From NCBI GenBank assembly GCA_963745135.1, contig CAVUWW010000013.1, positions 1-52,838 on the forward strand: 52,838 nt of DNA, in the 5' to 3' direction. Source of the stretch: an uncultured bacterium (GTDB lineage: Bacteria; Patescibacteriota; Minisyncoccia; UBA6257; 2-01-FULL-56-20). The notes under the pieces are model-generated. The model was not told where the DNA came from. It saw only the letters and a list, made by a program, of their open reading frames with translations, and did not search any database. Both the position numbers and the translations under genes were made by a program. Of the stretch, positions 3,295-30,479 are shown in pieces. Positions within the stretch are counted from its first letter, which is position 1. Each line of letters begins with the position of its first letter.

Positions 3295-3404
3295 TAGTTT
3301 GTGGTTCTGTCATTGTGGCTTTCACGGACAAGTACGGATTTATGAACGGATTTACACGGATTATCCGTAAAAATCCGTTCTAAGATCCGTATGTATTCGC
3401 GCAC

Positions 3405-4175
3405 TCACGCTTTTGCTGCAGCCACCGCTATGATTCTCCTCGCTCCTGCCGCTTTCAGCGCGCGCGCCGCTTCCAAAAACGTGCTGCCCGAGGTCGTCAC
3501 GTCGTCAATCAACAGGATTTTCTTGCCTTTTACGGCTTCGGGATTTTTGACCGTGAAACAGCCGGACAGATTTTCGCGGCGTTCCTTGATATCTTTCGTT
3601 TCGGTTTGCGGCTTGGTGTGTTTGGTTTTCAATAAAACATCAGTTACGATCGGCAGAGAAATTCTTTCCGTGAGCTTCGCGGCGATCAAGTTGGCTTGGT
3701 TGTAGCCGCGTTCGAGTTGGCGTTGTTTGGAAAGGGGGATGGGGATGATGGTGAAGCCGGAAACGAAGACCGTCTTCTCTAGAAACACGCCATCAGATCC
3801 TCTGCAAGCCCGAGGCGCGTTCGTTGTGGAAGACGGTCTTCGTTTCCGTTCAGCCGTTCCTTCTAAAAACTTTACCATCAGCTCCGCCAACGGCTCCGCG
3901 GCCTCGCGCGCGTTGCGGAACTTCAAGTTATGGATGAGAGCTTTGAGCGCCGGATTGTTATAGGGACCGGCGGCGCCCATGAGGCAGGGGACTTTTGGAT
4001 GGCAGATTTTGAGGGCGATTGGTAATCGCGCGCCGCATTCGCCGCAGAAGAAGGCGGTGTTGATTGGGATGCCCGTGAAGCAGGCGCCGCAAATGACGCC
4101 ATTCTTGATATTTATTCCGCACCCAAGGCAGGTCCGCGGGAAGAAGATTTCGGTGAGAATTGAGGTGAATTTCAT
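3405..4175 (-). CDS. comFC: ComF family protein (phosphoribosyltransferase domain)
   Basis: Start moved to MKFTSIL (ATG 4175). N-terminal Cys clusters CLGCG..CGAC..CGECG and a C-terminal PRT motif KILLIDDVTTSGSTF. Confidence 0.8.
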   Translation of the reverse strand: MKFTSILTEIFFPRTCLGCGINIKNGVICGACFTGIPINTAFFCGECGARLPIALKICHPKVPCLMGAAGPYNNPALKALIHNLKFRNAREAAEPLAELMVKFLEGTAERKRRPSSTTNAPRACRGSDGVFLEKTVFVSGFTIIPIPLSKQRQLERGYNQANLIAAKLTERISLPIVTDVLLKTKHTKPQTETKDIKERRENLSGCFTVKNPEAVKGKKILLIDDVTTSGSTFLEAARALKAAGARRIIAVAAAKA

Positions 4176-4204: not shown

Positions 4205-4324
4205 AATGCGAATTTGCGAATGTATGCGAATGCCGCAAATGCCGAGGTGCGAATGCCGCGAATGATTCGCAAAATTCGCACCGCATTATTCGCAGCATTC
4301 GCACGCCATTCGCGGATTCGCATT
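4205..4324. repeat. inverted array hairpin, GCGAAT / ATTCGC units
   Basis: The left half holds about 6 GCGAAT-containing units and the right half about 6 ATTCGC units. The centre is gcgaatgattcgc. It lies between divergent comF and pilM. Confidence 0.8.
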
Positions 4325-4365
4325 ACGCTGGCCGATTATAAACCCATACACCAAGCGCCACCACA

Positions 4366-5451
4366 ATGCAATCTTCTTTTAATCTTTTCCGGCGCACGTT
4401 TTCCGGCTCCTGCCTCGGCGTGGACATCGGTACGACTTCCATCAAGATTGTCGAAGTGGCGGGCGGCAAGGAGAAGCCGGCGGTCCTGAACTACGGGCTT
4501 TTGGAATCGAGCGGCTATCTTGCGCGGTCGAACCAGGCGTTCCAGACGAGCAGCTTAAAAATCTTCGAGGCGGAGGTCGCGGAGCTCTTAAGGGCGCTCG
4601 CGCGGTCGGTGCGGGCCGGGACCAAGAACGCGATCGCGTCCCTGCCGGTGTTCTCGGCGTTCACGACCGTGCTCGACTTCCCGCAAATGCCGCCGCAGGA
4701 GATTGAGCAGGCGCTCATTTTCCAGGCGCGGCAGTACGTGCCGTTGCCGCTTTCGGAAGTTTCGCTCGATTGGCTGAAGGTGGGCGAGTACGAGGACGAC
4801 AAGGGTTTCGCGCACCAGAAAATATTCCTGACTTCGATTCCCAACGAGCAGATAAAAAAATACCAGAATATGTTCGCCGCAGCCGGATTGCATCTGGTCG
4901 CGCTCGAGCTCGAAAGCTTGAGTTTGGCGAGATTGTTCGGCAACGATTCCACGCCCACAATCCTCGTGGACATCGGCAGCCGCTCGACGGACATCGTGTT
5001 CCTCGAGTCCGGCAATCTCGTCTGGAACGCGCAGAGCGATTTCGGCGGCGCGTCGCTCACGCAGGCCTTGGCCTCAAGCTTGGGCGTGAACCCGCTGCGC
5101 GCGGAGGAATTGAAGAAGGAGCGCGGCATCCTTGGCACCGGCCCAAGCTATGAGTTGTCCACAATCATGCTTCCGTTCGTGGATGTTATAATAAATGAGG
5201 TGAAGAAAGCCGATTTCGCTTACCGGCAGCAGTTCCCCGCCGCGAAAAAAGCGGAGCGGGTGATGCTCGCTGGCGGCGGCGCGAACTTGCTTGGCATCGA
5301 GAAATATTTCGAGCGCGAGTTCGGCGTCCCTGCAGTGAAGGCCGCGTCCTTCGTCAGGTTCGGCTATCCGCAGGAGATGGAGCCGCTCGTCCCCGAGCTG
5401 AATCCGCTGATGAGCGTGGCACTGGGGTTGGGGATGAGGAATTTCGTGTAG
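4366..5451 (+). CDS. pilM: type IV pilus assembly ATPase-fold protein PilM
   Basis: 361 aa with an actin-like fold signature CLGVDIGTTSIKIVEV and DIGSRSTDIVF. It is the first gene of the pilus operon. Confidence 0.85.
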   Translation: MQSSFNLFRRTFSGSCLGVDIGTTSIKIVEVAGGKEKPAVLNYGLLESSGYLARSNQAFQTSSLKIFEAEVAELLRALARSVRAGTKNAIASLPVFSAFTTVLDFPQMPPQEIEQALIFQARQYVPLPLSEVSLDWLKVGEYEDDKGFAHQKIFLTSIPNEQIKKYQNMFAAAGLHLVALELESLSLARLFGNDSTPTILVDIGSRSTDIVFLESGNLVWNAQSDFGGASLTQALASSLGVNPLRAEELKKERGILGTGPSYELSTIMLPFVDVIINEVKKADFAYRQQFPAAKKAERVMLAGGGANLLGIEKYFEREFGVPAVKAASFVRFGYPQEMEPLVPELNPLMSVALGLGMRNFV

Positions 5452-5549
5452 GCATACGAATGTACGAATCGGTACGAATATACGAATAGGAAATCAAAAA
5501 AATTAATCTCCCATTCGTATATTCGTAAAAATTCGTAAATTCGTATGCC
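5451..5549. repeat. inverted array hairpin, GGCATACGAAT...ATTCGTATGCC family
   Basis: 4 TACGAAT units, a loop, then 4 ATTCGTA units. It starts at the last base of the pilM stop codon and contains the next ATG (5545) in its last 5 nt. Confidence 0.85.
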
Positions 5550-6141
5550 ACTACCGCAACAAGTCGTCGAAAAATTGAGCCGCGAGCCGATTAAGACGCC
5601 CGGATGGTCGGGCGGGGTTTTGTTCTATTCGGGCGTGCTTTTGGCCGTGGTCGTCGTCATTTACGCCGGACTTTCGTTCGTGTACGCGCCAATCCTGAAT
5701 GCGCGCATCGCGGGCGCCGAAAGCAAAATTTCCGCATTGAGCAATACGATTTCCGCGTCGGACGAGCAGCAGCTTGCCACCTATTATTCCCAGATATCGA
5801 ACCTCCGCTTGCTCATACAGAACCACATCGTCCTTTCACCGTTTTTCGCGTGGCTCGAAGGGCACACGGAAGCGAACGTCTCCTATGCCAACTTGAATTT
5901 TTCTGCGGGGAACCAGGTTGCGCTCACGGCGACCGCGCTAACGGAAGCCGACGTGAACCAGCAGGTCGCGATTTTCCAGGCGGCGCCGGAAGTGAAGATG
6001 GTGAATGTTTCCAACCTTTCGTTCGTCGCGACGAACAATATGTGGCAGTTCAGTGTGTCCCTCGTGATGCAGCCGTCAATGTTCACGTGGCAGCCGCAGG
6101 GCGGCGCGGCGACAGGATCGGCGACGTCGAGCGGGCAGTGA
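5545..6141 (+). CDS. PilN-like single-pass pilus assembly protein
   Basis: 198 aa with one N-terminal TM helix (VLFYSGVLLAVVVVIYAGL) followed by a coiled region. It sits directly after pilM. Confidence 0.55.
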   Translation: MPLPQQVVEKLSREPIKTPGWSGGVLFYSGVLLAVVVVIYAGLSFVYAPILNARIAGAESKISALSNTISASDEQQLATYYSQISNLRLLIQNHIVLSPFFAWLEGHTEANVSYANLNFSAGNQVALTATALTEADVNQQVAIFQAAPEVKMVNVSNLSFVATNNMWQFSVSLVMQPSMFTWQPQGGAATGSATSSGQ

Positions 6142-6148
6142 TGAAGAA

Positions 6149-6201
6149 GGGTCTGGGGTCTAGGGTATAGTGAACCCCAAACCCCAAACCCCAAACCCTA
6201 C
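6149..6201. repeat. inverted array hairpin, GGGTCT/GGGTAT vs ACCCCAA units
   Basis: Sequence gggtctggggtctagggtatag-tg-aaccccaaaccccaaaccccaaaccctac. It fills the gap between stop 6141 and ATG 6204. Confidence 0.8.
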
Positions 6202-6203
6202 TA

Positions 6204-6812
6204 ATGAAGCAATCTTCAAAAAGATTAATCAGTATGCTCCTCGCCCTCGTCTTTTTGGTTGCCGCGTTCATCGGTTTTTTTGACTTCATCCAGCCAGCCT
6301 ACGGCAACATCGGGAACCTGCGGGGCGAGGCGTCCGCGGAACAGCAGCTTTTGACGACGCTTACGGCGACCGTGCAGCAGGCGCAGGCACTTCTCAGCTC
6401 GTACGGCAGCCAAAGCTCGAGTACGGCGGGAATTGGCATGGTTCTGCCGGCGGGGACCGACGTGGCTGGCGCGTTGGCGCAGGTGAACGGCATTGCGACG
6501 GCCGACAATCTCACCATTACCTCGATTGCCGTTTCTACGCCGGTGCTCCAGACGCAGCCGGCCACAAGCGTTTCCTCGACTTTAGCGACCGCGAAGCCGG
6601 CGGGCGAGTTCTCGCTGAAGATCGCGGCGACGGGAAGCTATGAGAGTTTCAAAAGCTTCCTGTCGGACATTGAAACAAACATCCGGCTGTTCGACGTGGA
6701 GAGCGTTTCCCTGCAGCCGGTCGCCGCCGCCGCAGCTTCAGGGAAAAGGTCGGTGTCCGTGGACTATTTCACGTATAATATAGTGGCGCAGACGTATTAC
6801 CAGACCCCTTAA
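6204..6812 (+). CDS. PilO-like pilus assembly protein
   Basis: 202 aa with an N-terminal TM helix (LISMLLALVFLVAAFIGFF). Assigned from its position in the pil operon. Confidence 0.5.
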   Translation: MKQSSKRLISMLLALVFLVAAFIGFFDFIQPAYGNIGNLRGEASAEQQLLTTLTATVQQAQALLSSYGSQSSSTAGIGMVLPAGTDVAGALAQVNGIATADNLTITSIAVSTPVLQTQPATSVSSTLATAKPAGEFSLKIAATGSYESFKSFLSDIETNIRLFDVESVSLQPVAAAAASGKRSVSVDYFTYNIVAQTYYQTP

Positions 6813-6816
6813 AGAA

Positions 6817-6902
6817 GGGTATGGGGTATAGGGGATAGGGTATAGTGAAGAAATTCCGTACCCTATACCCTATACCCTATGCCCTATGCCCTATACCCTA
6901 CC
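6817..6902. repeat. inverted array hairpin, GGGTATR / ACCCTAT family
   Basis: Left arm gggtatggggtataggggatagggtatag, loop tgaagaaattccg, right arm (taccctat/gccctat) x6. The ATG at 6904 follows 1 nt later. Confidence 0.85.
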
Positions 6903-6903
6903 A

Positions 6904-7203
6904 ATGGCAATCATTGTCGAAGAGGAAAAAACAAGCTCGGGGATCATCAGCTTTTTGGGCTGGGCGTCCATCATCGCGATCCTCGCCGTTGCGGCGTATT
7001 ACGGGTTCCTTGCGCCCGCGCCTCTGGTGGTCGTAGCCCCTCCCGCCGATTTGAATAACTTGCTTTCCATTTCAAGCGCCGGTTTGAACGCAAACAGTAT
7101 TTTGCAGGGCGCTGAATTCCAATCGCTTGCGCAACACGTGCCGGAGCCCTCCGCCACCGGTCCTGCGGGAGTCGGGAGAACGAATCCGTTTGTGGCTCCG
7201 TAG
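6904..7203 (+). CDS. small membrane protein in the pilus operon
   Basis: Start moved to MAIIVEEEK (ATG 6904), directly after the hairpin. One TM helix (IISFLGWASIIAILAVAAYYGF). Confidence 0.5.
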   Translation: MAIIVEEEKTSSGIISFLGWASIIAILAVAAYYGFLAPAPLVVVAPPADLNNLLSISSAGLNANSILQGAEFQSLAQHVPEPSATGPAGVGRTNPFVAP

Positions 7204-7204
7204 T

Positions 7205-7293
7205 AATCGCGAATATCGCGAATGAGCGCAAATAACGCGAATAAAACAAAACCACCATTCGCATTATTTGCTTTGATTCGCGTTATTCGCGAA
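7205..7293. repeat. inverted array hairpin, CGCGAAT / ATTCGCG units
   Basis: Left arm aatcgcgaatatcgcgaatgagcgcaaataacgcgaat, right arm attcgcattatttgctttgattcgcgttattcgcgaa. The ATG at 7301 is 7 nt downstream. Confidence 0.8.
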
Positions 7294-7300
7294 CACTCCT

Positions 7301-9025
7301 ATGACCGACGACCAACTGCTTGAACAGCTCCAGCGGCAGAACCTGATCACGCCTCCTTTGGTCACGCGGCTCAAACGGGATGCTTTGATCAAGATGCGGC
7401 CGGTCGAATCGCTTATCGAGGACGAGCGCCTGGTGCCGAGCGAGAAGATCGCGGAATTGAAAAGCCAGATCATGAACGTGCCGTACCAGAAAGTGGATCC
7501 GGCGAGCGTGACCGCCGAGCTGCTCGAACTGATTCCCGAAGACACGGCGCGCACGTACGGCGTCTTGCCGCTCGCGTTGCAGGACAACCTGCTCGTGGCG
7601 GGCATGGTGCACCCGGATGATTCAAAGGCGCAGGAAGCATTGAAGTTCCTCGCGCGGCGCGGCCATTACAATCTGGGCGTGTACGTCATTTCCTTCGGCG
7701 ACTGGCAGGCGGTCTTGCGGAAATATTCGCCGTACCGCACGGAGATCGCGCGCGCGGTGCAGTCGCTGAACATCAAGGAGGGATCGGCAATGCAGAAGTC
7801 GGTGAGCCTGGAGGACGCGATGGCGGGTGATGAGGCGCCGGTCATCCGGATCGTCGCGGACACACTGAAGGAAGCGGTGTTCAGCAAGGCGTCGGATGTC
7901 CACATCGAGCCGCAGGAAAATTCCGTGCGCGTTCGGTTCCGCAACGACGGCGACCTGCACCAAGTGGCGTCGCTCCCGCCGGAGCTTGGCCAGCCGGTCA
8001 TCTCGCGGGTGAAGGTGCTCTCCCAAATGAAGATTGACGAGACGCGCACGCCGCAGGACGGCCGCTTCCGCTCGCGCATTCTTGACAAGGACATTGATTT
8101 CCGCGTCTCGACCTTCCCGACGCCGCTCGGCGAGAAAGTGGCGATCCGCGTGCTTGACCCGGCGACGGGGCTGAAGGATTTTTCGAAGTTGCCATTCCTC
8201 TTTAGAAACGCGGAAATCGTGAAGGAGGGGCTCGAGAAACCATACGGGATGATTCTGATCACGGGGCCTACCGGCTCCGGAAAAACGACGACGCTCTATG
8301 CGTTCCTCCAGCAGATGAACAAGGAGGACGTGAATATCGTCTCACTTGAGGATCCGGTGGAATATTTCGTCGCGGGCGTGAACCAGTCGCAGGTGCGGCC
8401 GGAGATCGGCTACGACTTTGCGTCGGGCTTGCGCGAGATTGTGCGGCAGGATCCGGACATCATCATGGTCGGTGAGATTCGCGACGCCGAAACCGCCGGG
8501 CTCGCCGTGCAGGCGGCCTTGACCGGCCACATCGTGCTCTCGACTTTGCATACCAACAACGCCGCCGGCGTCATCCCGCGCCTCACGGATTTAAAAGTGG
8601 AACCATTCCTACTGCCAGTGTCGTTGAATTTAATGATCGCACAGCGCTTGCTTGGCGTTTTGTGCGACAACTGCAAGGCGGCGGACGTGGCGCCGGAAAG
8701 CGTGCAGAAAATAATCAAAAGCGCGCTCGCGAACCTGCCCGAGGAAGTTACCAAGGAATTTCAGGAGCCATACAAGACCTATCATGCGAAGGGTTGCAAT
8801 GTTTGCAAGGGCAAGGGCATTCTCGGCCGGACCGCGATTTACGAGGCGTTCCACATGAGCCCGCAAATGGAGGAGCTGATTGCCGCCGGGACGCCGACAG
8901 TCCAGAAGATCATGGCGGAAGCGAAGCGGCAGGGTATGCTCACGCTGCGGCAGGACGGCGTGATTAAGGCGTTGCGGGGGATCGTGTCGATCGAGGAGGT
9001 GGCTAGGGAAACGGAGGAAGTGTAG
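7301..9025 (+). CDS. pilB: type IV pilus assembly ATPase PilB (GspE family)
   Basis: 574 aa with Walker A GPTGSGKTTT, a GspE N-terminal domain and a tetracysteine motif CDNC...CNVCKGKG. Confidence 0.9.
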   Translation: MTDDQLLEQLQRQNLITPPLVTRLKRDALIKMRPVESLIEDERLVPSEKIAELKSQIMNVPYQKVDPASVTAELLELIPEDTARTYGVLPLALQDNLLVAGMVHPDDSKAQEALKFLARRGHYNLGVYVISFGDWQAVLRKYSPYRTEIARAVQSLNIKEGSAMQKSVSLEDAMAGDEAPVIRIVADTLKEAVFSKASDVHIEPQENSVRVRFRNDGDLHQVASLPPELGQPVISRVKVLSQMKIDETRTPQDGRFRSRILDKDIDFRVSTFPTPLGEKVAIRVLDPATGLKDFSKLPFLFRNAEIVKEGLEKPYGMILITGPTGSGKTTTLYAFLQQMNKEDVNIVSLEDPVEYFVAGVNQSQVRPEIGYDFASGLREIVRQDPDIIMVGEIRDAETAGLAVQAALTGHIVLSTLHTNNAAGVIPRLTDLKVEPFLLPVSLNLMIAQRLLGVLCDNCKAADVAPESVQKIIKSALANLPEEVTKEFQEPYKTYHAKGCNVCKGKGILGRTAIYEAFHMSPQMEELIAAGTPTVQKIMAEAKRQGMLTLRQDGVIKALRGIVSIEEVARETEEV

Positions 9026-9030
9026 GTGGA

Positions 9031-9150
9031 ACCAGCTACCAGCTGCTGGCGACCAGTCACCGATACTCATGGATTTGAGTTTTCATATGATACAATAAGA
9101 GTAATAATTTTGGATTTAGCTGGTAGCTGGTAGCTGGTAGCTGGTAGCTA
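9031..9150. repeat. inverted array hairpin, CCAGCTA / TAGCTGG units with a ~60-nt loop
   Basis: Left arm accagctaccagctgctggcgaccag. Right arm is (tagctgg) x4.7. The ATG at 9160 is 9 nt downstream. Confidence 0.8.
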
Positions 9151-9159
9151 ATCTCATTC

Positions 9160-10234
9160 ATGGACGACTTCAAGCAAAAACTAAACGACCTGCTCACCGC
9201 CACGGCGCGGCAGAACGCTTCCGACCTCCACATCGCCGTCGGCAAGCGGCCGACGTTGCGTATTGACGGGGTTCTCGTGCCGCTCCAGAAGGAGCCGGTC
9301 TTGACGCCCGAGATGGCGGAGGGAATCATCGGCGCGATGATATCGCCCGAGCAGAAAGAGAGGCTTGCGAAGGACCGGCAGGTGGACTTCGCCTACAGCT
9401 TCGAGGACAAGGCGCGGTTCCGCGTGAACGCTTTCTACCAGCGGGGGTATCTGGCTGCGGCATTGCGTTTGGTTCCCGGGCGCGTGAAGGACATTGAAGA
9501 GCTGAACCTGCCGCCGCTCCTGCACGACTTTACGAAACTTTCCCAAGGTTTCATTTTGGTCGTGGGTCCGGCGGGGCATGGCAAATCCACAACGCTCGCC
9601 GCGATGATCGACGAGGTGAACCACACCCGCTCCGACCATATCATCACGATCGAGGATCCGGTGGAATATCTCTTTACGCAGGACAAGTGCATCGTCTCCC
9701 AGCGCGAGGTGGGAAGCGACACCATTGGCTTCCACGCCGCGCTCCGGACCGTCCTGCGGCAGGATCCCGACGTCATCATGATCGGCGAGATGCGCGACGC
9801 GGTCTCGATTGACACTGCGATGACGGCGGCCGAGACCGGCCACTTGGTGCTCGCAACGCTGCATACTAATTCCGCCGCGCAGACAATCGACCGAATCATT
9901 GACTCGTTCCCCGCCGAGCAACAGGGGCAATGTCACTTCGCAATTGGCGGCCACCTTGGTTGCTATAGTTTCAGAGCGGCTTTTGCCGCGCATCTCCGGC
10001 GGCCGCGTGCCTGCGCTCGAGATCATGATTGTGAACCCCGCCATCCGCAACCTGATCCGCGAGCGCAAAGTGTATCAGATTGACTTGGTGATTGAGACCA
10101 GCTTGCAGGAAGGCATGGTAACGCTGAACCGGTCGCTCGCGAATTTGGTGAAGAACAAAGAAGTGACGCTCGAGAACGCAGAGCTGTATTCATTGAATCC
10201 TGCCGAGTTGAGGATTTTGCTGGAGAGGATGTAG
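9160..10234 (+). pseudogene. pilT: twitching-motility ATPase PilT, interrupted by a +1 frame break
   Basis: ORFs 9160..10083 (Walker A GPAGHGKST) and 9899..10234 (RISGGRVPALEIMIVNPAIRNLIRE) are two halves of one PilT. Deleting one G of the GGGG run at 9924..9927 fuses them. Confidence 0.8.
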
Positions 10235-10240
10235 GAGAAA

Positions 10241-10310
10241 GTTATCAGGTTATAAAGTTATCAGGTTATCAGGTAGGAATTTAACTTTAAAAACCTGATA
10301 ACTTGATAAC
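10241..10310. repeat. inverted array hairpin, GTTATCAG / CTGATAAC units
   Basis: Left arm gttatcaggttataaagttatcaggttatcaggt, right arm acctgataacttgataac. The ATG at 10319 is 8 nt downstream. Confidence 0.8.
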
Positions 10311-10318
10311 TTTCAACC

Positions 10319-11530
10319 ATGAAGTTCAAGTATCAGGCCCGAACCAAAGAAGGGGAGCTCCAAGTCGGCATCATTGACGCCGGCTCGCGCGACGCAGCTT
10401 TGCAGATTTTGGCGGGGCACGAGCTTTACACCTTGAGCGTCGAGACGGCAACGGCGCCGCAGTGGTACGACCGGATCGGGGAATTTTTCGGCCGCGTCAG
10501 GCGCCGGGATCTCGTCATCTTTTCGCGCCAGCTTGCGACGCTCCTCGAGGCGCGCCTGCCCTTGAACAACGCCTTGCGCGTGCTCCATGAGCAGACCGTG
10601 AACGCGCGGCTCAAGGAGGGGATTTTGCAGATGTCCCAGGACATTGACGCCGGGCTTTCGTTTTCGCAGGCGCTCGAGCACCAGGGGCGCATGTTCCCTT
10701 CATATTACATGGAGATGGTGCGGGCGGCGGAGGTGACAGGGAATCTTGCCGAGATATCGGGCTTCCTCGCCGATTACACGGAGCGCGAAGGCGACCTCGC
10801 GAGCAAGGCGTCTTCGGCGATGATCTATCCGGGCATCGTCCTTGGGCTTTTTCTCGTCGTCGGTTTCATCCTGCTCACATTCGTCTTTCCGCAGATTAAG
10901 CCGGTCTTCGACCAGAGCGGCGTGACGTTGCCGTGGTACACCGCGTTTTTCTTGGGGGCGGGCACTTTCATGCAGCAATGGTGGCCGGCGATAATTGTGG
11001 CGGCGTTCGTGCTTGGGGTTGTTGTCTTTGATTATTTCCGCACGCCCGAAGGCATTGCGCTGTTCGACGACCTGAAGATCCGCCTGCCGGTTTTGCAGAA
11101 AGTTTTTTTGCCGCTCCTCATGGCGCGGTTCGGGAATTCGGCGGAGCTTCTGATCCATGGCGGCGTCCCGCTCGCGCAAGCGCTCGAGATCATCAGCCAC
11201 ATGATGGGGAATGTCTTGTACGAGGACGTGGTGCACCAGGTTGCGGAGGACGTGCGGCAGGGGAAATTGCTATCGGAAAGTTTGGCGGACTACCCGCGCT
11301 ATTTCCCGATCATGGTGCCGCAGATGGTGTCGGTCGGCGAGACGACAGGAAAGATTGAGGAGATGTTTGGGCGTCTTTCGAAGATCTATACGCGCGAGGC
11401 AAACCAGACGATGGACAACCTGGTGGACCTCATCCAACCCATTCTCATGATTGGCATGGGCGCGATGGTGGGACTTTTGTTCGCATCAATTCTCGTGCCG
11501 CTCTACCAGCTGACGGCGAGCATACATTAA
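10319..11530 (+). CDS. pilC: type IV pilus platform protein PilC (T2SS F family)
   Basis: 403 aa with duplicated T2SSF-type domains and three hydrophobic segments. Confidence 0.9.
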   Translation: MKFKYQARTKEGELQVGIIDAGSRDAALQILAGHELYTLSVETATAPQWYDRIGEFFGRVRRRDLVIFSRQLATLLEARLPLNNALRVLHEQTVNARLKEGILQMSQDIDAGLSFSQALEHQGRMFPSYYMEMVRAAEVTGNLAEISGFLADYTEREGDLASKASSAMIYPGIVLGLFLVVGFILLTFVFPQIKPVFDQSGVTLPWYTAFFLGAGTFMQQWWPAIIVAAFVLGVVVFDYFRTPEGIALFDDLKIRLPVLQKVFLPLLMARFGNSAELLIHGGVPLAQALEIISHMMGNVLYEDVVHQVAEDVRQGKLLSESLADYPRYFPIMVPQMVSVGETTGKIEEMFGRLSKIYTREANQTMDNLVDLIQPILMIGMGAMVGLLFASILVPLYQLTASIH

Positions 11531-11534
11531 AGAA

Positions 11535-11747
11535 GGGTATGGGGGATAGGGTATAGGGTGAAGAGAAGAAAGAAGAATTTGCCCTGTGGATAACAAGAGA
11601 AGTTACGCGGTTTGACAATGATATACTTAAATAAATATCAAAAAGGTCGAGAAAGTTACTGAAAAATCAGATTAAAAAAAGAAAAGGGCTAGGAATTTTG
11701 GGCTTGGATTGAATATCTATACCCTATACCCTATACCCTATACCCTA
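11535..11747. repeat. GGGTATR / ACCCTAT inverted arrays separated by a ~155-nt A/T-rich spacer
   Basis: Left arm 11535..11560 and right arm 11717..11747, which is (ctatacc) x4. The pilin ATG at 11748 abuts the right arm. Confidence 0.75.
11612..11641 (+). promoter_or_regulatory. possible pilin promoter (TTGACA, 17-18 nt spacer, ATATCA/TATCAA)
   Basis: Perfect -35 TTGACA at 11612..11617 inside the spacer of the split hairpin. The -10 box is weak. Confidence 0.3.
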
Positions 11748-12242
11748 ATGCGAAATGGATTTACTTTGATTGAAATTCTCATCGTGGTCGCGATCATCGC
11801 CATTTTGGCGTCAGTCGTGCTCATCGGCCTTGGCCCAACCCAGCAGTCCGGCCGAGACGCGCGGCGGCTTTCCGACCTCCATGAGGTGCAGAACGCCATC
11901 GAGCTGTACTACCAGAAGTGCGGTTTCTATCCGGGCAGCGTAAGCGGTTCTGGTCCCACTGCAACTTGCGTTTCGCTTAACAGCCAAACCTATACTGGCA
12001 TGAGCGCTGCGATTTTGAGCGCCGGCATCGGCATCACGTCTCCCTTGCCGCTTGATCCGACGAACAATGCCACGTATTATTATTTCTACGGGACGAACGG
12101 CGCCACCTATATCCTCGGCGCGACGCTCGAAAACACGAATAACGCGGTGTTCAGCGGTTACCAAAACCCCCTGCCGACTTCGAACGTAACCATGCCCGGC
12201 GGGCAAAACTGCAACAGTCCTGAATATTGCATGTCATTGTAG
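11748..12242 (+). CDS. type IV pilin (prepilin with class III signal peptide)
   Basis: Start moved to MRNG/FTLIEILIVVAIIAILA, the canonical prepilin cleavage/methylation motif. Confidence 0.9.
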   Translation: MRNGFTLIEILIVVAIIAILASVVLIGLGPTQQSGRDARRLSDLHEVQNAIELYYQKCGFYPGSVSGSGPTATCVSLNSQTYTGMSAAILSAGIGITSPLPLDPTNNATYYYFYGTNGATYILGATLENTNNAVFSGYQNPLPTSNVTMPGGQNCNSPEYCMSL

Positions 12243-12271
12243 GATCAGCAGTTCGTTCGCTTCGGTTCCAA

Positions 12272-12295
12272 AGCCGGCAGAGATGCCGGTTTTTG
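12272..12295 (+). terminator. intrinsic terminator after the pilin gene
   Basis: Stem agccggc / gccggtt, loop agagat, then a T-run. Confidence 0.6.
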
Positions 12296-12303
12296 GTTGG
12301 ATT

Positions 12304-12394
12304 TTACGAAAGTACGAATACAGTACGAAAATACGAATATCCATCACAGTGCAGGTTATTCGTATTTTCGTAAATAATTCGTAATTTCGTAAAC
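12304..12394. repeat. inverted array hairpin, TACGAAW / WTTCGTA units
   Basis: Left arm ttacgaaagtacgaatacagtacgaaaatacgaatat, right arm ttattcgtattttcgtaaataattcgtaatttcgtaaa. Confidence 0.8.
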
Positions 12395-12398
12395 TAGG

Positions 12399-12404
12399 TA
12401 TAAT
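12399..12404 (+). promoter_or_regulatory. -10 box TATAAT, 6 nt before ATG 12411 (leaderless pilD candidate)
   Basis: Sequence ggTATAATaaaacaATG. Confidence 0.5.
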
Positions 12405-12410
12405 AAAACA

Positions 12411-13274
12411 ATGCCTTACGTCCTGCTCTTTGCGCTTGGTCTCTGCATCGGCAGCTTTTTGAACGTTGTCGCGCTGCGCTACGACGGCGAGCATTTTGTG
12501 TTCGACCCGAAAGTGATAGGCGGAAGATCCCATTGCCCGAAATGCGATCGCACGCTCCGTTGGTTTGAGTTGATTCCGATCGTGAGTTTCATCATCCAGC
12601 GCGCCAAATGCCGCGCTTGCCAAGCGCGCATCGGTTTGCGATATCCGGCTGTCGAGCTTTTGACCAGCTTGTTGTTTGTGGCGGTTCCGTGGCGCTTGGC
12701 GCAGCTTCCAGCTTCCAGCTTCCAGCTTCCAGTCGACATTCTTTGGATTGTTGCGTTTCTTATTCTCCTTCTTATCGCCTATATCGACATCCGGCTTGGC
12801 ATCATTCCGGATGAACTTGAAATAATGCTCGGCGTTTGCGCTTTTGGTATTGTTTTGATTTCTTCCCTAGCTGCTAGCTACTCGCCCCTCGCCCCTAATT
12901 TCTCCTTTCTCGGCGCTTTCGCGCCGATTTTCGGCTTCCAGCAAAACGTCTGGACTGCACGCATCATTGGCATGATTTTCGCTTTCGCGTTCTTTGAGTT
13001 GCTCGTGCTCGTGACGCGCGGCCGCGGCATGGGCGTGGGCGACGTGAAGCTCGCCCTGCCGCTCGGATTTCTTTTCGGCTGGCCGGATATTTTGATCGCC
13101 ATCATGTCCGCTTTCGTAGTTGGCGCCGCAGTCGGGGTTGTGAGCATCGCGGTCAAGTGGAAAAAAATGGGCGGCAATCTGCCTTTTGGGCCGTTTTTGG
13201 CTGCCGGCGCGGCGTTCGTCTTCTTTTTCGGGCTGCCGGTGGCGCAGTGGTATTTTCATTTGATGGGGATGTGA
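12411..13274 (+). CDS. pilD: prepilin peptidase PilD (A24 family)
   Basis: 287 aa with N-terminal CPKC..CRAC and catalytic Asp contexts GMGVGDVKL and LPFGPFL. Confidence 0.9.
   Translation: MPYVLLFALGLCIGSFLNVVALRYDGEHFVFDPKVIGGRSHCPKCDRTLRWFELIPIVSFIIQRAKCRACQARIGLRYPAVELLTSLLFVAVPWRLAQLPASSFQLPVDILWIVAFLILLLIAYIDIRLGIIPDELEIMLGVCAFGIVLISSLAASYSPLAPNFSFLGAFAPIFGFQQNVWTARIIGMIFAFAFFELLVLVTRGRGMGVGDVKLALPLGFLFGWPDILIAIMSAFVVGAAVGVVSIAVKWKKMGGNLPFGPFLAAGAAFVFFFGLPVAQWYFHLMGM
12703..12732 (+). repeat. intragenic tandem heptamer AGCTTCC x4.3 inside pilD
   Basis: Sequence agcttcc agcttcc agcttcc agcttcc ag, encoding QLPASSFQLP in the linker between the two PilD domains. Confidence 0.9.
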
Positions 13275-13280
13275 AGAAAT

Positions 13281-13374
13281 TTTCAGTTTTCAATTTCCAA
13301 TGGATGTTTCAGCGATGCAATGATGCAAACTTGAAACATTGGCTCATTGCTTCATCTATTGGAAATTGGAAATT
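13281..13374. repeat. nested inverted repeat (AATTTCCAAT / ATTGGAAATT units)
   Basis: Outer arms ttttcaatttccaatgg and tattggaaattggaaatt. Inner arms atgtttca and tgaaacat. Confidence 0.7.
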
Positions 13375-13394
13375 AATCCGTGGCTACCAAATCG

Positions 13395-13403
13395 TGCTAT
13401 GAT
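13395..13403 (+). promoter_or_regulatory. extended -10 box TGcTATGAT
   Basis: gTGcTATGAT is identical to the box at 23152. AAAGGA follows, and the ATG at 13416 is 12 nt downstream. Confidence 0.45.
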
Positions 13404-13415
13404 TAAAGGAAATCC

Positions 13416-13982
13416 ATGAAAAAGGGATTTACCTTGGTCGAAATGCTCATCGTGCTTGCCATTTCCGCGCTCCTTGCGGGCATCGCCTTGAGCTATAACA
13501 GCGCGAGCCGGAAAGAGATTGCGCTCTCGGTGGAGGCGGCAAAGATCTCCCAATTCATCCTGCAGGCGGAATCGCTCTCCATTGCGACCTACGGCGCCAA
13601 TTCCGCGACCCTTGTGTGCGGGTATGGGATGGTCTTCAACGCCGCAGCGCAGACCTACGGTATTTTCGAATACCAGCCGGCTGGCGCGACGACGTGCAGC
13701 GGCGTTGCTTTGCCTCTCGCTTCCATCGCCGCCGGGGAGATGCAACAATACACGCCGGGGACGTGGAACATCCACGTGGCTCCGGAGGTGCGCCTCGTGA
13801 GCGCCTCGACGGACAGCATAGCAGTCGTCCTCTTCTATCCGCCGGCGCCGACGACTTACATCAGCCGCGACGGAAGCAATTTCCTTTCCCCGACCGTGAC
13901 CTCAAAAATTTACCTCACGACGGCGGACGGCAGCGATGCGAGGACGATCAGCGTGAATTCGGAGGGGCAGGTGAGTTTTTGA
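13416..13982 (+). CDS. minor pilin (prepilin-type N-terminal cleavage/methylation domain)
   Basis: N-terminus MKKG/FTLVEMLIVLAISALLAG. Confidence 0.85.
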   Translation: MKKGFTLVEMLIVLAISALLAGIALSYNSASRKEIALSVEAAKISQFILQAESLSIATYGANSATLVCGYGMVFNAAAQTYGIFEYQPAGATTCSGVALPLASIAAGEMQQYTPGTWNIHVAPEVRLVSASTDSIAVVLFYPPAPTTYISRDGSNFLSPTVTSKIYLTTADGSDARTISVNSEGQVSF

Positions 13983-13989
13983 ATTTGAA

Positions 13990-14062
13990 GGGTATAGGGT
14001 ATGGGGTATAGGGTATAGTGAAACCCTAGACCCTAGACCCTAGACCCTAGACCCTAGACCCT
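13990..14062. repeat. inverted array hairpin, GGGTATR x4 / ACCCTAG x6
   Basis: Sequence gggtatagggtatggggtatagggtatag-tg-aaaccctag(accctag)x4 accct. The ATG at 14063 abuts the right arm. Confidence 0.9.
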
Positions 14063-14605
14063 ATGCAAAGTCAATCCTCACAATCCGGGCAATCGTTGAT
14101 CGAGGCCATGATTGCCATCAGTTTGCTCACCGTCGGTTTCATCGGCATCGCGGCGTTGCTCTCGCAGTCGCTCTATCTCACGCGCGTCATTTCCGACCAG
14201 ACGACGGCGACCTATCTTGCGTCCGAAGGCATTGAGCTTGCGAAGAACCTGATTGATCATGACGTGTATATGCACCTTGCGGGATTGGGAACCGGTTGGG
14301 GAACTTGCTTCAATATCAGCAATCCCGGGACGACCGAGATCGAGCTTGATTACACCTCGCTTGATTGCAGCAAGGCCTATTTCGCCGGAGATTTTTTGCA
14401 GTTCGATCCGGTGACCGGACTTTATGGCTACAGCTCTGATCTGCCGGCTGCGGACAATCCCATCCCGACCAAGTTCACGCGTGAGATTGACATTAATTTG
14501 CAGGGCAACGAGATTACCGTGAATTCCAAAGTCAGGTGGAACACCGGCGCGTTCACGTCGCAGAGCGTCAATCTGGAAGATCATTTTTACAATTGGAGGC
14601 AGTAA
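14063..14605 (+). CDS. pilin-like protein (PilV-like minor pilin)
   Basis: N-terminus MQSQSSQSGQSLIEAMIAISLLTVGFIG, a prepilin-type hydrophobic N-terminus. Confidence 0.75.
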   Translation: MQSQSSQSGQSLIEAMIAISLLTVGFIGIAALLSQSLYLTRVISDQTTATYLASEGIELAKNLIDHDVYMHLAGLGTGWGTCFNISNPGTTEIELDYTSLDCSKAYFAGDFLQFDPVTGLYGYSSDLPAADNPIPTKFTREIDINLQGNEITVNSKVRWNTGAFTSQSVNLEDHFYNWRQ

Positions 14606-14612
14606 TTTTTAA

Positions 14613-14671
14613 GGGTATGGGGTATAGGGTATAGTGAAACCCTAAACCCTAAACCCTAAACCCTAAACCCT
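14613..14671. repeat. inverted array hairpin, GGGTATR x3 / ACCCTAA x5
   Basis: Sequence gggtatggggtatagggtatag-tg-aaaccctaa(accctaa)x3 accct. The ATG at 14672 abuts the right arm. Confidence 0.9.
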
Positions 14672-15277
14672 ATGCAACGCCAATCTCCACAATCCGGCCA
14701 GTCCCTCATCGAGCTTCTCGTCGCCATCGGCCTCTTCTCTATCCTCTTTGCCATTGCGGGCGGGGGATTCGTGAACGCGCTCCATGCCCAGAACCAGGTT
14801 TCGGCGGAGATGGCGGCGGAAAGCAACGTCGGCATCGCGATTGAGGAGATGGCGCGGGAGATGCGGACCGGCTACCTTTTCTGCCACGATTTGAACGGCG
14901 TTTCAACGTGCGACACGAGCGATCCCTCGTACAATCGCCACTGCACATTCGATGCGGCAACCCAACTGCTCACCTGCTCCGACCTTGAATATTACGACGC
15001 GAACGGCGAGAAAATCGATTACGTCCTGAAGGGCGGCGTCCTGGAACGCGGAGACAACGATGCGTACCAGCCGATCACGGGGGATAATGTGACCGTGCGC
15101 TCGCTCTCATTCGTCCTTCACGGCAATACGGAAGGCGACCATTGGAACCCGCGGATCACCGTCACGATCGGCATTGCGCCGAACAATTCGGGCGTCTCAT
15201 GGAACACGGTTGACTTCCAGACCACGGTGAGCGCAAGGGAGATTGATTGCACGGCGGGAGCGAGCCCGAGCTGCTGA
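14672..15277 (+). CDS. pilin-like protein (PilW-like minor pilin)
   Basis: N-terminus MQRQSPQSGQSLIELLVAIGLFSILFAI. Confidence 0.75.
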   Translation: MQRQSPQSGQSLIELLVAIGLFSILFAIAGGGFVNALHAQNQVSAEMAAESNVGIAIEEMAREMRTGYLFCHDLNGVSTCDTSDPSYNRHCTFDAATQLLTCSDLEYYDANGEKIDYVLKGGVLERGDNDAYQPITGDNVTVRSLSFVLHGNTEGDHWNPRITVTIGIAPNNSGVSWNTVDFQTTVSAREIDCTAGASPSC

Positions 15278-15363: not shown

Positions 15364-15365
15364 GT

Positions 15366-16478: not shown

Positions 16479-16485
16479 AGGGTAT

Positions 16486-19679: not shown

Positions 19680-19750
19680 CGAATAGCTGGAGAAAATATA
19701 ATATGCTTAACTATTGATGTCAAGCAAGTAAGTTAATTCAGTTCATTTTT

Positions 19751-19790: not shown

Positions 19791-19792
19791 AA

Positions 19793-25722: not shown

Positions 25723-25811
25723 GGCATACGAATGTACGAATTTTTACGAATATACGGACGGGAAACTCAATCTCTTATTCGTATATTCGTACCGATTCGT
25801 AAATTCGCATG
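25723..25811. repeat. GGCATACGAAT...ATTCG hairpin element (near-identical to 27513..27600)
   Basis: Shares both arms and the loop gggaaaYtcaatctc with the copy at 27513. The ATG at 25809 lies in the last arm unit (attcgcATG). Confidence 0.85.
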
Positions 25812-27512: not shown

Positions 27513-27600
27513 GGCATACGAATGTACGAATAGTTACGAATATACGAATGGGAAATTCAATCTCTTATTCGTATATTCGTACCGATTCGTAAATTCGTAA
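27513..27600. repeat. GGCATACGAAT...ATTCGTAA hairpin element
   Basis: Near-identical to 25723..25811. It starts 1 nt after stop 27512, and ATG 27609 is 8 nt downstream. Confidence 0.85.
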
Positions 27601-27608
27601 CCCTACCA

Positions 27609-29794: not shown

Positions 29795-29806
29795 TGTGGT
29801 AAGTGG

Positions 29807-29929
29807 GGCATACGAATTTACGAATCGGTACGAATATACTAATAAGATTAGTAGCGGAACCATTCCAAACATTCGTGTACCCATTCTGAATTATTCGTAT
29901 ATTCGTACAAATTCGTACATTCGTATGCC
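29807..29929. repeat. GGCATACGAAT...ATTCGTATGCC hairpin element (long-loop copy)
   Basis: Same termini as 5451..5549. The lepB ATG at 29925 lies inside the terminal ATTCGTATGCC. Confidence 0.85.
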
Positions 29930-30479
29930 CATGCGCAAATTCCTCGCCTCGCTCCTCGAAGTCCTGGAAATCGCGGCAATCGCCGTCGCCGCCGTCTTCA
30001 TCGTGCGCACGTTTCTTGTCCAGCCGTTCTTGGTCAGCGGCACGAGCATGTATCCCACTTTTTCGAACGGCGATTACGTTTTGGTTGACGAGCTGACCTA
30101 CCGCATCCGGCCGCCGGAGCGCGGCGAGGTCATCGTATTCCACGATCCCGAGGATTATTCCACGTATTTCATCAAACGCATCATCGGCCTGCCGGGCGAG
30201 AAAGTGGTTTTGCATAACAGCACCGTCACGGTCTATAACAGCGCGAACCCGAACGGCCTCGTGCTTGACGAATCGTATCTGCCGCCGGGGACGGTTACTT
30301 CGGGAGACCAGACCTACGTGCTTTCTTCAAGCACGTACTTGATGTTCGGCGACAACCGGCCGTTCAGCTACGATTCGCGCAGCTGGGGGCCGCTGCCGAC
30401 GAAGAACATCGTCGGCCTCGTGCGCGTCCGCCTGTGGCCGGTGACCGCGATCACCGCGTTCGCCGCGCCGAAGTATTGA
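29925..30479 (+). CDS. lepB: signal peptidase I
   Basis: Start moved to MPMRKF. Contains the catalytic Ser box SGTSMYPTF, the KRIIGLPGE Lys box and GDNRPFSYDSR. Confidence 0.9.
   Translation: MPMRKFLASLLEVLEIAAIAVAAVFIVRTFLVQPFLVSGTSMYPTFSNGDYVLVDELTYRIRPPERGEVIVFHDPEDYSTYFIKRIIGLPGEKVVLHNSTVTVYNSANPNGLVLDESYLPPGTVTSGDQTYVLSSSTYLMFGDNRPFSYDSRSWGPLPTKNIVGLVRVRLWPVTAITAFAAPKY

Follow-up and report, generated by a model that had tools for sequence, protein, structure and literature searches.

Five short palindromic elements lie between genes of the window (the whole stretch of Patescibacteria, or candidate phyla radiation (CPR), DNA analyzed here, which is a complete contig of 52,838 nt), flush against stop and start codons. 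In three of them a terminal repeat unit includes an ATG (5545, 25809 and 29925) that is in frame with the downstream open reading frame, and a first-pass annotation had concluded that the repeat itself supplies the initiation codon. The locus raises the question whether this is so, and what kind of element stands at these gene junctions.

Palindromic elements in the window

The heptamer TACGAAT occurred 35 times on both strands of the window, compared to 5.35 ± 2.09 times in shuffled sequences, and none of 100 shuffles reached 35. Thirty-three of these occurrences were located inside five non-coding palindromic elements of 89 to 125 nt, the same four elements and related array that the first-pass annotation had described. 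Their size and copy number, as well as the terminal inverted repeats common to the copies, are those of a MITE, in line with the earlier description of a dispersed, MITE-like palindromic family with defined termini. The consensus termini were GGCATACGAAT and ATTCGTATGCC, the right end being degenerate in copies 2 and 3; allowing at most one mismatch, the GGCATACGAAT terminus was found 7 times, compared to 0.95 expected. The arms follow the plan unit-N-unit-NNN-unit-N-unit with unit starts 8, 10 and 8 nt apart (8, 11 and 8 nt in the variant array at 12303–12394). Folding of the five elements gave minimum free energies (MFE) of −34.8 to −51.5 kcal/mol and z-scores of −7.5 to −12.0, and none of 200 shuffles folded equally well.

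Copy 1 (5451–5549; MFE −46.9 kcal/mol, z −12.0) comprises a left arm at 5451–5487 (GGCA and four TACGAAT units), a loop at 5488–5512 and a right arm at 5513–5549 (four ATTCGTA units and TGCC). It is located between the pilM stop codon (TAG 5449–5451) and the pilN start codon (ATG 5545–5547), the latter inside the last unit. Copy 2 (25723–25811; MFE −34.8 kcal/mol, z −7.5), in opposite orientation to copy 4, lies between the stop of a tRNA-binding-domain gene (25718–25720) and the FKBP gene and has two degenerate units, TACGGAC (inner left) and ATTCGCA (outer right). Copy 3 (27513–27604; MFE −42.0 kcal/mol, z −9.6) directly follows the stop codon of a 131-aa ORF (27510–27512), and the ATG of the next gene is found at 27609. 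Copy 4 (29806–29930; MFE −51.5 kcal/mol, z −9.0), with a 45-nt loop, is placed between the divergent genes pth (ATG 29766, minus strand) and lepB, 3′ of a conserved TATAAT at 29789–29794, and stops 1 nt short of the conserved lepB ATG at 29931. The −10 box GAACCGTATAATTGTGGTAAGT upstream of lepB is common to two retrieved loci, L116 and L117. Since copy 4 sits between this box and the lepB ATG, it would form nearly the entire lepB 5′ UTR, as had been suggested. The variant copy (12303–12394; MFE −38.7 kcal/mol, z −10.0) follows a terminator-like hairpin and precedes the prepilin peptidase gene, whose leaderless-type start is GGTATAATAAAACAATG; the left arm of this copy alternates between TACGAAA and TACGAAT, mirrored as TTTCGTA and ATTCGTA in the right arm.

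Copies 2 and 3, previously noted as nearly identical, agree at 81 of 89 positions (91%), loop included. The non-complementary spacers are common to the copies (outer G/A, middle CGG/AAA) and both orientations are represented, the centre of copy 1 being flipped. Taken together, these features point to a family by descent within the window. Direct repeats flanking the four copies were not visible by inspection.

The same stretch contains other unit families. The CGAAT core had been reported to recur in three further places, two of which are true sister arrays with the same outside-in polarity: one at 4206–4322 with units TGCGAAT/GCCGCAAAT in the divergent spacer between a comF-like gene and pilM, and one at 7202–7298 with units (AT)CGCGAAT between a 105-aa ORF and pilB. 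The third, the ‘ACGAATG’ feature at 19749–19792, has the opposite polarity, with ATTCG on the left and CGAAT on the right, and forms a perfect palindrome of 21 bp rather than a unit array. At least 20 unit-array hairpins were counted in the first 35 kb. Some families, such as AGGGTAT/ACCCTAA, have a 7-nt period yet also form inverted pairs, and the right arms of these other families are perfect tandem heptamers (100% over 4 to 6 units), whereas their left arms are degenerate. In the pilus operon (4366–15277) nearly every intercistronic gap consists of a stop codon, a left array, a loop, a right array and a start codon, with hairpin ΔG values of −24 to −60 kcal/mol.

Neighboring genes keep their ancestral start codons

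At pilN (5545–6141, plus strand) the right terminus of copy 1 coincides with the ancestral start ATGCC. The N-terminus MPLPQQV (ATG CCN) did not vary among 18 homologues with identities as low as 32%, and the same start is used in orthologous operons with an element-free pilM-pilN spacer of 4 nt (L114) or 7 nt (L115). The conserved start of lepB (29931–30479, plus strand, 182 aa) is MRKF, with which the recorded LepB product of the contig (P0045) and 12 aligned homologues (76–90% identity) begin, or which they contain; its ATG lies 6 nt downstream of the element ATG at 29925. For the FKBP gene (25830–26357, plus strand), the syntenic orthologue starts with MNKPL within the conserved AAATAAAACCATGAAYAAACCA. 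This start corresponds to ATG 25830; copy 2 contains a further ATG 21 nt upstream in the same frame, at 25809, which is not conserved.

The starts of PilN, LepB and FKBP are ancestral, and the elements do not create host start codons. The proposal that host genes take their initiation codon from a terminal unit rested on the in-frame ATG in three copies, but an invariant PilN start that is used in element-free orthologues, and conserved LepB and FKBP starts 3′ of the element ATGs, leave it with hardly any probability. With respect to the original finding the main result is negative: the repeat is not the source of host start codons. It also bears on annotation, where the in-frame ATGs of the terminal units lengthen the longest-ORF calls at FKBP and LepB and lead to wrong starts.

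Array-flanked GxxExxY genes and the origin of the elements

The family is not confined to the window. TACGAAT arrays were found at at least 112 other loci, mostly from CPR/Patescibacteria and including several Saccharibacteria MAGs, in genomes with GC contents of 30 to 62%; by our count, CPR names appear in about two-thirds of 80 record titles among the matches listed. A blastn comparison of the window with these loci gave no match, and an exact-sequence lookup of PilM found no record. Both the unit and the 8-10-8 layout of the arms are found again in different CPR classes, and the exact terminus GGCATACGAATNTACGAAT had no match in any retrieved locus. Among 183 arrays, all 69 paired ones had the polarity TACGAAT...ATTCGTA and none the reverse, the palindrome reaching 2 to 3 nt past the outermost units. 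Only 14 of the 183 were inside ORFs; the spacers were co-directional in 39 cases, divergent in 6 and convergent in 5, and solo arrays were common (63 left-type, 51 right-type). Whole-element identity, loop included, was also observed within several other genomes. Target-site duplication, which a MITE would be expected to show, was absent from 49 of 67 paired arrays of CPR loci. A scan of 2.9 million viral contigs for the array returned a single match, so that phages are no obvious vector.

Orthologous junctions revealed presence and absence of elements at the same site, the relatives with empty sites being only 49 to 82% identical in the flanking protein, a distance that does not speak for recent insertion. 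The pilM-pilN spacer holds a TACGAAT element in the window and a CTAATT-unit element in L113, and is empty in L114 and L115. Likewise, the pth-lepB spacer carries a TACGAAT element in the window and, in L117 (LepB 90% identical), a GAAGAAA-unit hairpin whose boundaries are the same, and is a 48-nt spacer with no element in L118 and L119. Relatives at 87 to 90% LepB identity have wholly different unit families at the same junctions, so that either replacement must have been very fast or arrays have grown in situ. At the pilB-pilT junction, the arms of three unit families flank the core ATATGTTATAATTTT on both sides, and ATATGTTATAATTTT makes up the whole spacer in the element-free L114; insertion of a single block is therefore no explanation at this site.

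In six loci (L036, L042, L078, L095, L100 and L089), arrays 350 to 470 nt apart enclose genes for proteins of about 130 aa that match PF13366 (PDDEXK_3) and TIGR04256 (GxxExxY), and inverted unit arrays surrounded all eight GxxExxY genes present in the retrieved TACGAAT loci. Among 78 GxxExxY loci gathered by protein similarity alone, 38 had three or more copies of a 6-mer on the left and three or more of its reverse complement on the right, and 58 did so at the level of two; the direct-repeat control gave 2 and 12, respectively. The unit spacing 8-10/11-8 recurs around these genes. In 29 of 35 of them the innermost left unit ends between −2 and +10 nt from the start codon, and in 18 of 35 the innermost right unit and the stop codon overlap. 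Conversely, a survey of 4771 ORFs yielded 50 that are hugged by inverted arrays, 31 of them GxxExxY. In 35 of 51 cases a protein and its nearest neighbor shared their unit class, compared to about 21 expected by chance. Contig L078 combines both forms, with a gene-bearing element at 1217–1666 and gene-less hairpins at 3673–3772 and 4350–4444; all three have the left arm GATACCAATATACAAATGCATGCGAATGATACGAAT(AG/GGA)TACGAAT (45 nt) and the right terminus TATTGGTATC. This MAG also contains another family, with GAGC...GCTC ends, whose GxxExxY protein (A5) shares only 33% identity. In L078, then, a gene-bearing element has the ends of the gene-less ones, and no such relative was found for the GGCA-type family of the window in the contig or the retrieved loci. 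No GxxExxY gene was found in the 52.8-kb contig itself, and the scanned ORFs of the window gave no match to a transposase, including Y1.

The catalytic D...ExK motif of the GxxExxY proteins is conserved. An AlphaFold model (pLDDT 93.9) has the PD-(D/E)XK fold, with Cas4, lambda exonuclease and an Hjc-type resolvase as the nearest structures. The fold search returned only generic PD-(D/E)XK neighbors at TM about 0.5, which gives no specific mechanistic lead, and a search of PDB sequences with the GxxExxY profile had no match. No activity of GxxExxY is known to us, nor any 130-aa PD-(D/E)XK protein that serves as a transposase by itself. In three array-flanked modules the place of the nuclease is taken by a four-helix-bundle protein (23S-rRNA-IVP-like), and the nuclease may therefore be cargo rather than engine.

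On this evidence the five elements are probably gene-less, non-autonomous members of a palindromic intergenic family with a wide distribution among CPR/Patescibacteria, and MITE-like relatives of a palindromic element with an associated nuclease. A full-length relative consists of two inverted arrays enclosing one GxxExxY gene for a minimal PD-(D/E)XK nuclease of about 130 aa, each end being built from about four 7-nt units, reading TACGAAT from the outside inwards, and 2 to 4 additional palindromic bases (GGCA...TGCC in the window). The nuclease gene starts next to or within the innermost left unit and often stops inside the innermost right unit; the start and stop codons abutting the units belong, in full-length relatives, to the element's own gene. 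The loops of the window's copies measure only 17 to 45 nt where full-length relatives have the gene. Such elements may spread by copying, with the nuclease recognizing the units and driving the process, and the gene-less forms would have arisen from gene-bearing ones instead of serving as targets for their insertion. Their position flush against stop and start codons would follow from the very short spacers of a compact genome. When transcribed, they are predicted to form hairpins of −35 to −52 kcal/mol within operons and 5′ UTRs; at pilN, GGCAU at the base of the hairpin would pair with AUGCC of the start codon.

The order of events may be the reverse, and the arrays primarily binding or target sites whose palindromes came about first, grown in situ by slippage and template switching or spread by gene conversion, with GxxExxY genes as homing-type parasites or trans-acting binders that enter the centre or act on it. 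The arms on both sides of an ancestral promoter core at pilB-pilT in three lineages agree with this, as does the contrast between perfect right-arm heptamers and degenerate left arms in other families, evidence of active in situ slippage. Solo arms have a constant polarity with respect to the nearest gene end, the protein co-varies with the unit class, and arms of about 35 to 45 bp would offer homology for homing between copies. We nevertheless consider this order unlikely: identity over the whole element including the loop, in copies 2 and 3 and in several other genomes, indicates copying of entire elements, the same unit and 8-10-8 plan are found across CPR classes at GC contents of 30 to 62%, and the first right-hand unit incorporates the nuclease stop codon in 18 of 35 genes, which suggests co-evolution as a module.

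Similarly improbable, and a little more so, is that the hairpins are host-selected RNA elements punctuating operons, either as RNase III sites, as mRNA stabilizers or in translational coupling, where a ribosome that terminates at the base of the stem, on the stop codon, would open the stem and release the next start codon. In favor of such a role are the stop-array-loop-array-start layout of nearly every pilus operon gap and the pairing of the pilN start in a terminal 11-bp helix whose first stem base overlaps the pilM stop. Shine-Dalgarno sequences are absent at the compact junctions of L114, and the alternation of TACGAAA and TACGAAT at 12303–12394 is mirrored in the other arm. Sense and antisense folding were compared as a test for selection on the RNA, and no strand bias was found (sense minus antisense MFE −11.9 to +16.1 kcal/mol for 19 elements); copy 1 even folds better as antisense. 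The elements occur in both orientations, with convergent and divergent spacers in roughly ordinary proportions, the degenerate units of copies 2 and 4 are not compensated, the orthologous operons of L114 and L115 work without elements, and the nuclease gene between the arms is left unexplained.

A role as intrinsic transcription terminators or attenuators, suggested by strong hairpins directly 3′ of stop codons, is extremely unlikely given AT-rich stems of 35 to 45 bp with internal loops and no T-tract, terminator scans that found none at the elements (copies 1 and 4), and their location within essential pilus and secretion operons and in the lepB 5′ UTR. Rfam 15 at gathering score detected three tRNAs in the window and no match at the elements. 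A DNA-uptake sequence was rejected, with only five sites in 52.8 kb, units that are almost all intergenic and many other unit families coexisting, and a promoter in the inner unit pair (TATATT) was set aside because its spacing to start codons was not consistent.

In the wider interpretation, which we put forward tentatively, GxxExxY proteins, a large family, could drive a class of compact mobile elements not yet described, whose ends would be inverted arrays of 7-nt protein-binding units, whose gene-less derivatives would fill a large part of the intercistronic and intergenic spacers in some CPR genomes, and in which every lineage of the nuclease would be matched to a cognate unit. A selfish element family with a small nuclease gene of this kind has apparently not been described before, since the literature searched on CPR intergenic repeats, MITEs of Patescibacteria, the TACGAAT motif and GxxExxY contained no description of such elements. 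GxxExxY is listed as function unknown (PMC3424549). If correct, the interpretation would give a first functional context to the orphan GxxExxY/PDDEXK_3 proteins, which are common in CPR genomes, and would identify the source of much non-coding DNA in some very small ones. It would also place very stable hairpins at the stop-start junctions of a clade without Shine-Dalgarno sites, which bears on translation.

Comparison with known systems

TIGR-Tas arrays appear to have an architecture different from that of the TACGAAT elements. The free-standing homing endonuclease genes of T4-like phages likewise place a small nuclease gene precisely between conserved genes, and Tn7 TnsA, I-Ssp6803I and Rpn/YhgA likewise use the PD-(D/E)XK fold for DNA mobility, but these systems have neither flanking unit arrays nor gene-less multicopy derivatives.

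The TAACTGA direct repeats are found in Beggiatoaceae, Cyanobacteria and Bacteroidetes; their published description counts 170 sets in the Maribeggiatoa genome, all but one direct, and takes their patchy distribution to suggest horizontal spread with no known mechanism (PMC4679880). As in the TACGAAT arrays, in these repeats and in the cyanobacterial STRR 2 to 6 intergenic 7-nt units lie a few nt from start codons and Shine-Dalgarno sequences are rare. Those repeats are direct with a strict 7-nt period and are not known to have an associated gene, whereas the units described here form inverted pairs with 8-10-8 spacing and a nuclease gene. The TACGAAT arrays are accordingly not head-to-tail heptamer repeats of 7-nt period.

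Bacterial MITEs (Neisseria Correia, RUP, Nezha) are likewise small, non-coding, multicopy and intergenic, have terminal inverted repeats and are co-transcribed. They can alter the expression of neighboring genes and are taken as deletion derivatives of a gene-bearing parent. The elements studied here differ in having no target-site duplication and no DDE transposase parent, in inverted repeats that are built of tandem sub-repeats, and in the coexistence of unrelated unit families, one taking the place of another at a given junction among close relatives.

The REP/BIME (REPIN) sequences of proteobacteria with their RAYTs differ in the enzyme, an HUH/Y1 transposase there and a PD-(D/E)XK GxxExxY (PF13366) protein of about 130 aa here, in the arms, one imperfect palindrome each there and about four 7-nt units with 8-10-8 spacing here, and in the hosts, here CPR; an IS200/IS605-like Y1 (HUH) transposase flanked by the repeats was not found. 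The resemblance lies in the organization. In both, many short palindromic hairpins are intergenic and co-transcribed without target-site duplication, inverted repeats flank an enzyme gene alongside many gene-less copies, a few copies bracketing a small gene for the enzyme proposed to spread them, and variants of the enzyme match variants of the repeat.

Anatomy, setting and distribution of the TACGAAT elements

The four elements and the related array located by the first-pass annotation were confirmed in the window sequence, at 5451..5549, 25723..25811, 27513..27604 and 29806..29930 (copies 1 to 4) and at 12303..12394 (variant copy). Counting both strands, TACGAAT occurs 35 times, 33 of them inside the five elements, compared to 5.35 ± 2.09 in dinucleotide-preserving shuffles of the window. 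The 11-mer terminus was found 7 times with at most one mismatch (0.95 expected). Each arm is built as unit-N-unit-NNN-unit-N-unit (starts spaced by 8, 10 and 8 nt), and the second arm is the inverse of the first. The elements fold at −34.8 to −51.5 kcal/mol (z-scores −7.5 to −12). Copies 2 and 3 are identical at 81 of 89 positions, the loop included, and the copies have non-pairing spacers in common, an outer G opposite A and a middle CGG opposite AAA. Copy 4 has the opposite orientation to copies 2 and 3, and copy 1 is mixed, its outer spacers following one orientation and its centre the other. The TACGAAT elements are a family by descent, rather than a product of hairpin convergence.

The window is a whole contig, and the names of its LepB homologues, Minisyncoccia or Paceibacterota, put the organism in the CPR/Patescibacteria. 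On the gene map obtained from Pfam scans, copy 1 separates pilM from pilN within a type IV pilus operon (4366-15277), and copy 2 separates a tRNA-binding-domain gene from an FKBP gene. Copy 3 has a gene of unknown function on either side, copy 4 sits in the spacer of the divergent pth and lepB, and the variant copy is upstream of the prepilin peptidase gene. In the pilus operon, a frameshift splits pilT (9160-10235): its ORF stops at 10083, while the conserved C-terminus (IRNLIRERKVYQIDLV...LLERM*) runs in another frame to 10235. Either the gene is a pseudogene or the assembly has an error here. A −10 box lies 6 nt ahead of the ATG in two genes, that for the prepilin peptidase (GGTATAATAAAACAATG, 12396-12413, +) and pth (GATATAATAAGCAAATG, 29764-29780, −), a spacing that suggests leaderless mRNAs. 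The ARAGORN tRNA at 43353-43426 (−) has an undetermined anticodon ('gt' at position 35) and scores 46.6 bits as an Rfam tRNA. A diversity-generating retroelement lies at 22287-25339; the syntenic region of a relative, L116, lacks it. The variable (22932-23060) and template (23660-23788) repeats of the retroelement are 79% identical over 129 nt, and in their alignment the differences fall on adenines of the template; its reverse transcriptase spans 24189-25244, and a perfect 32-nt inverted repeat is present at 25216-25247 and 25308-25339.

A scan of one genome per species for the three-unit pattern returned at least 112 stretches. Among the matches listed, about two-thirds of 80 records bear CPR names of many classes (by count of titles) and GC content ranges from 30 to 62%. 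Arrays of at least three units numbered 183 among these matches, of which only 14 lay within ORFs and 69 were paired; the polarity was TACGAAT...ATTCGTA in all 69 pairs and the reverse in none. By spacer type, again among the matches listed, 39 paired arrays were co-directional, 6 divergent and 5 convergent, and the outer edge of an array typically lay 2-12 nt from a gene end, start or stop alike. The palindrome extends 2-3 nt beyond the outermost unit, loops are also common to copies within a genome, and a target-site duplication was absent at 49 of 67 paired arrays of CPR loci. Only one array match was found in 2.9 million viral contigs. Unlike the four-unit arms found elsewhere, the ATTCGTA-type units of L073 (2833-3295), from a MAG that bears the label Bifidobacterium, stand in long tandem runs of a single direction (11, 7 and 19 units).

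Ancestral host start codons and turnover of intergenic hairpins

The proposal that the terminal units donate the ATG of the downstream genes was not borne out, as orthologues use the same ATG without any element. All 18 PilN homologues, some as little as 32% identical, keep the N-terminus MPLPQQV, and the pilM-pilN spacer is element-free in two syntenic operons, measuring 4 nt in L114 (TAG AACA ATGCCTCTTCCA) and 7 nt in L115. Since MPLPQQV is invariant and is used in these element-free operons, the pilN ATGCC is ancestral; it and the right terminus of copy 1 merely coincide. The LepB product on record for this contig (182 aa) begins MRKF, which is the N-terminus in 10 of 12 aligned homologues (76-90% identical) and follows a called N-terminal extension in the other two. 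This conserved start is the ATG at 29931, 6 nt past that of copy 4. The syntenic FKBP orthologue begins MNKPL within conserved AAATAAAACCATGAAYAAACCA, which corresponds to 25830 in the window, 21 nt past the ATG of copy 2. The further suggestion that the lepB leader consists almost entirely of the element would hold, judging from copy 4 filling the space between the ATG and a promoter, GAACCGTATAATTGTGGTAAGT, conserved in the window, L116 and L117.

Empty orthologous sites were looked for and found, at pilM-pilN in L114 and L115 and at pth-lepB in L118 and L119, two further relatives. Other relatives carry different units at such junctions: the closest long relative (L113/L116, LepB 87% identical) has CTAATT-unit elements at pilM-pilN and tRNA-bind-FKBP, where the window has TACGAAT, and in L117 (LepB 90% identical) pth-lepB holds a hairpin of GAAGAAA units whose boundaries match those in the window. 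In L114, which is element-free, operon spacers measure −4 to 21 nt, so that any insert there touches both genes; the flush fit of elements against stop and start codons thus calls for no particular explanation. No Shine-Dalgarno sequence was found at the compact L114 junctions.

Between 3.3 and 35 kb of the window, nearly every intergenic gap is a hairpin with arms of 7-9 nt unit arrays, and the TACGAAT family is one among many, the others including AGGGTAT/ACCCTAx, CGCGAAT, TGCGAAT, ACCAGCT, GTTATCAG, ACGGATT, AATCCTT and TAGCCAC. At least 13 further intergenic hairpins are built of other units (3333-3391, 6148-6200, 6816-6900, 9029-9150, 10238-10315, 11534-11747, 13287-13375, 13989-14063, 14612-14672, 15278-15365, 16480-16602, 30483-30562 and 34899-34967). 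Their right arms, which adjoin start codons, are often perfect tandem heptamers, e.g. (CCCTAAA)n at 14637-14672 and 34932-34967, and their left arms are degenerate. The parB ORF as called reads in frame through an inverted array (18502-18589; GGGTCTN x4, then AAACCCT-like x6), giving GLGSRVSGLG...ETLNPRPQTLNPKPEQ ahead of the ParB_N domain. A separate hairpin family with core CATTCGTTCA..TGAACGAATG sits at apparent gene 3' ends (19749-19792, about 38499-38527 and about 49430-49465); at 19749 the palindrome is perfect over 21 bp, and its polarity is opposite to that of the TACGAAT arrays.

At pilB-pilT (window 9026-9159; L113 14328-14443; L115 13209-13330; L114 13213-13233), arms of three different families flank the promoter-like core ATATGTTATAATTTT (CATATGATACAAT in the window), which is the entire spacer in L114 and the loop of hairpins from three unrelated units in the other three lineages. 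The arms appear to have been put on both sides of an ancestral core. One-step insertion does not account for this junction.

Association with GxxExxY nuclease genes

Among the TACGAAT loci of other genomes there are left-type and right-type arrays set 350-470 nt apart, with an ORF of ~130 aa between them. The product of this ORF is of the GxxExxY type (TIGR04256, Pfam PDDEXK_3, E 1e-17 to 1e-32) in L036, L042, L078, L095 and L100; in L089 the ORF is broken. Inverted unit arrays were present at all eight GxxExxY genes of the collected loci, two of which have quite different units, CACAGAT (L034) and CTCTGCAT (L086). A set of 80 loci was then retrieved by GxxExxY protein similarity alone, 78 of them with both flanks. 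A 6-mer present at least three times on the left, with its reverse complement at least three times on the right, was found at 38 of the 78 (58 at the two-fold level), compared to 2 and 12 in the direct-repeat control. The units (TACGAAT, TACAAAT, TACTAAT, CTAATT, ATCGAA, CACGAA) always have the same polarity, and the 8-10/11-8 spacing recurs. The gene exactly fills the space between the arms: in 29 of 35 genes −2 to +10 nt separate the end of the innermost left unit from the start codon (e.g. tacgaATG), and in 18 of 35 the innermost right unit contains the stop codon (e.g. ATTCGTAA).

In a survey of 4771 ORFs, 50 were closely enclosed by inverted arrays, 31 of them GxxExxY and three four-helix-bundle proteins. 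Most of the remaining 16 have right-type units (ATTCGT) on their left, as ordinary genes between two hairpins would. The four-helix-bundle proteins, which resemble the 23S-rRNA-intervening-sequence protein (motif SxGANxxEA; L039 6852-7226, L091 6303-6653, L099 1667-1972), are enclosed by TCAAAA, CTAATT and TCTAAT units; they make up another class of cargo for modules of this type.

On the L078 contig, one gene-bearing element and two gene-less hairpins have their termini and an idiosyncratic 45-nt left arm in common. This MAG also has another family (GAGC...GCTC ends), which is paired with a GxxExxY protein only 33% identical. Unit class agrees between a protein and its nearest protein neighbour in 35 of 51 cases vs ~21 by chance. 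The protein retains the D...ExK catalytic motif and is modelled as a minimal PD-(D/E)XK fold (pLDDT 93.9), the nearest structures, at TM about 0.5, being Cas4, lambda-type exonucleases, splicing endonucleases and a Hjc-type resolvase.

Reading of the elements and comparison with known systems

The window holds no GxxExxY gene, and its elements are best explained as gene-less, MITE-like members of a nuclease-associated palindromic family. They would spread by copying, the nuclease would recognise the units, and the gene-less forms would arise by gene loss from full elements rather than the full elements by insertion into hairpins. That the hairpins serve a function at the RNA level is a weakened alternative, as folding is without strand bias, both orientations occur and elements lie in spacers of all types. 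The hairpins must nevertheless affect expression; the pilN start codon forms base pairs within the basal helix of copy 1, and the pilM stop overlaps the first base of the stem.

The element family is more interesting than the first-pass annotation had supposed. The GxxExxY/PDDEXK_3 family is listed as of unknown function (PMC3424549), and our literature search returned no paper tying it to repeats. Heptamer repeats adjoining start codons in Beggiatoaceae and Cyanobacteria resemble the TACGAAT arrays (PMC4679880); unlike these, they are direct repeats with no known associated gene. In their logic the TACGAAT elements come closest to REP/REPIN-RAYT systems and to MITE-parent pairs, but they depart from both in a defining feature each way: they lack a target-site duplication, and the associated gene does not encode a transposase of the Y1 or DDE type.
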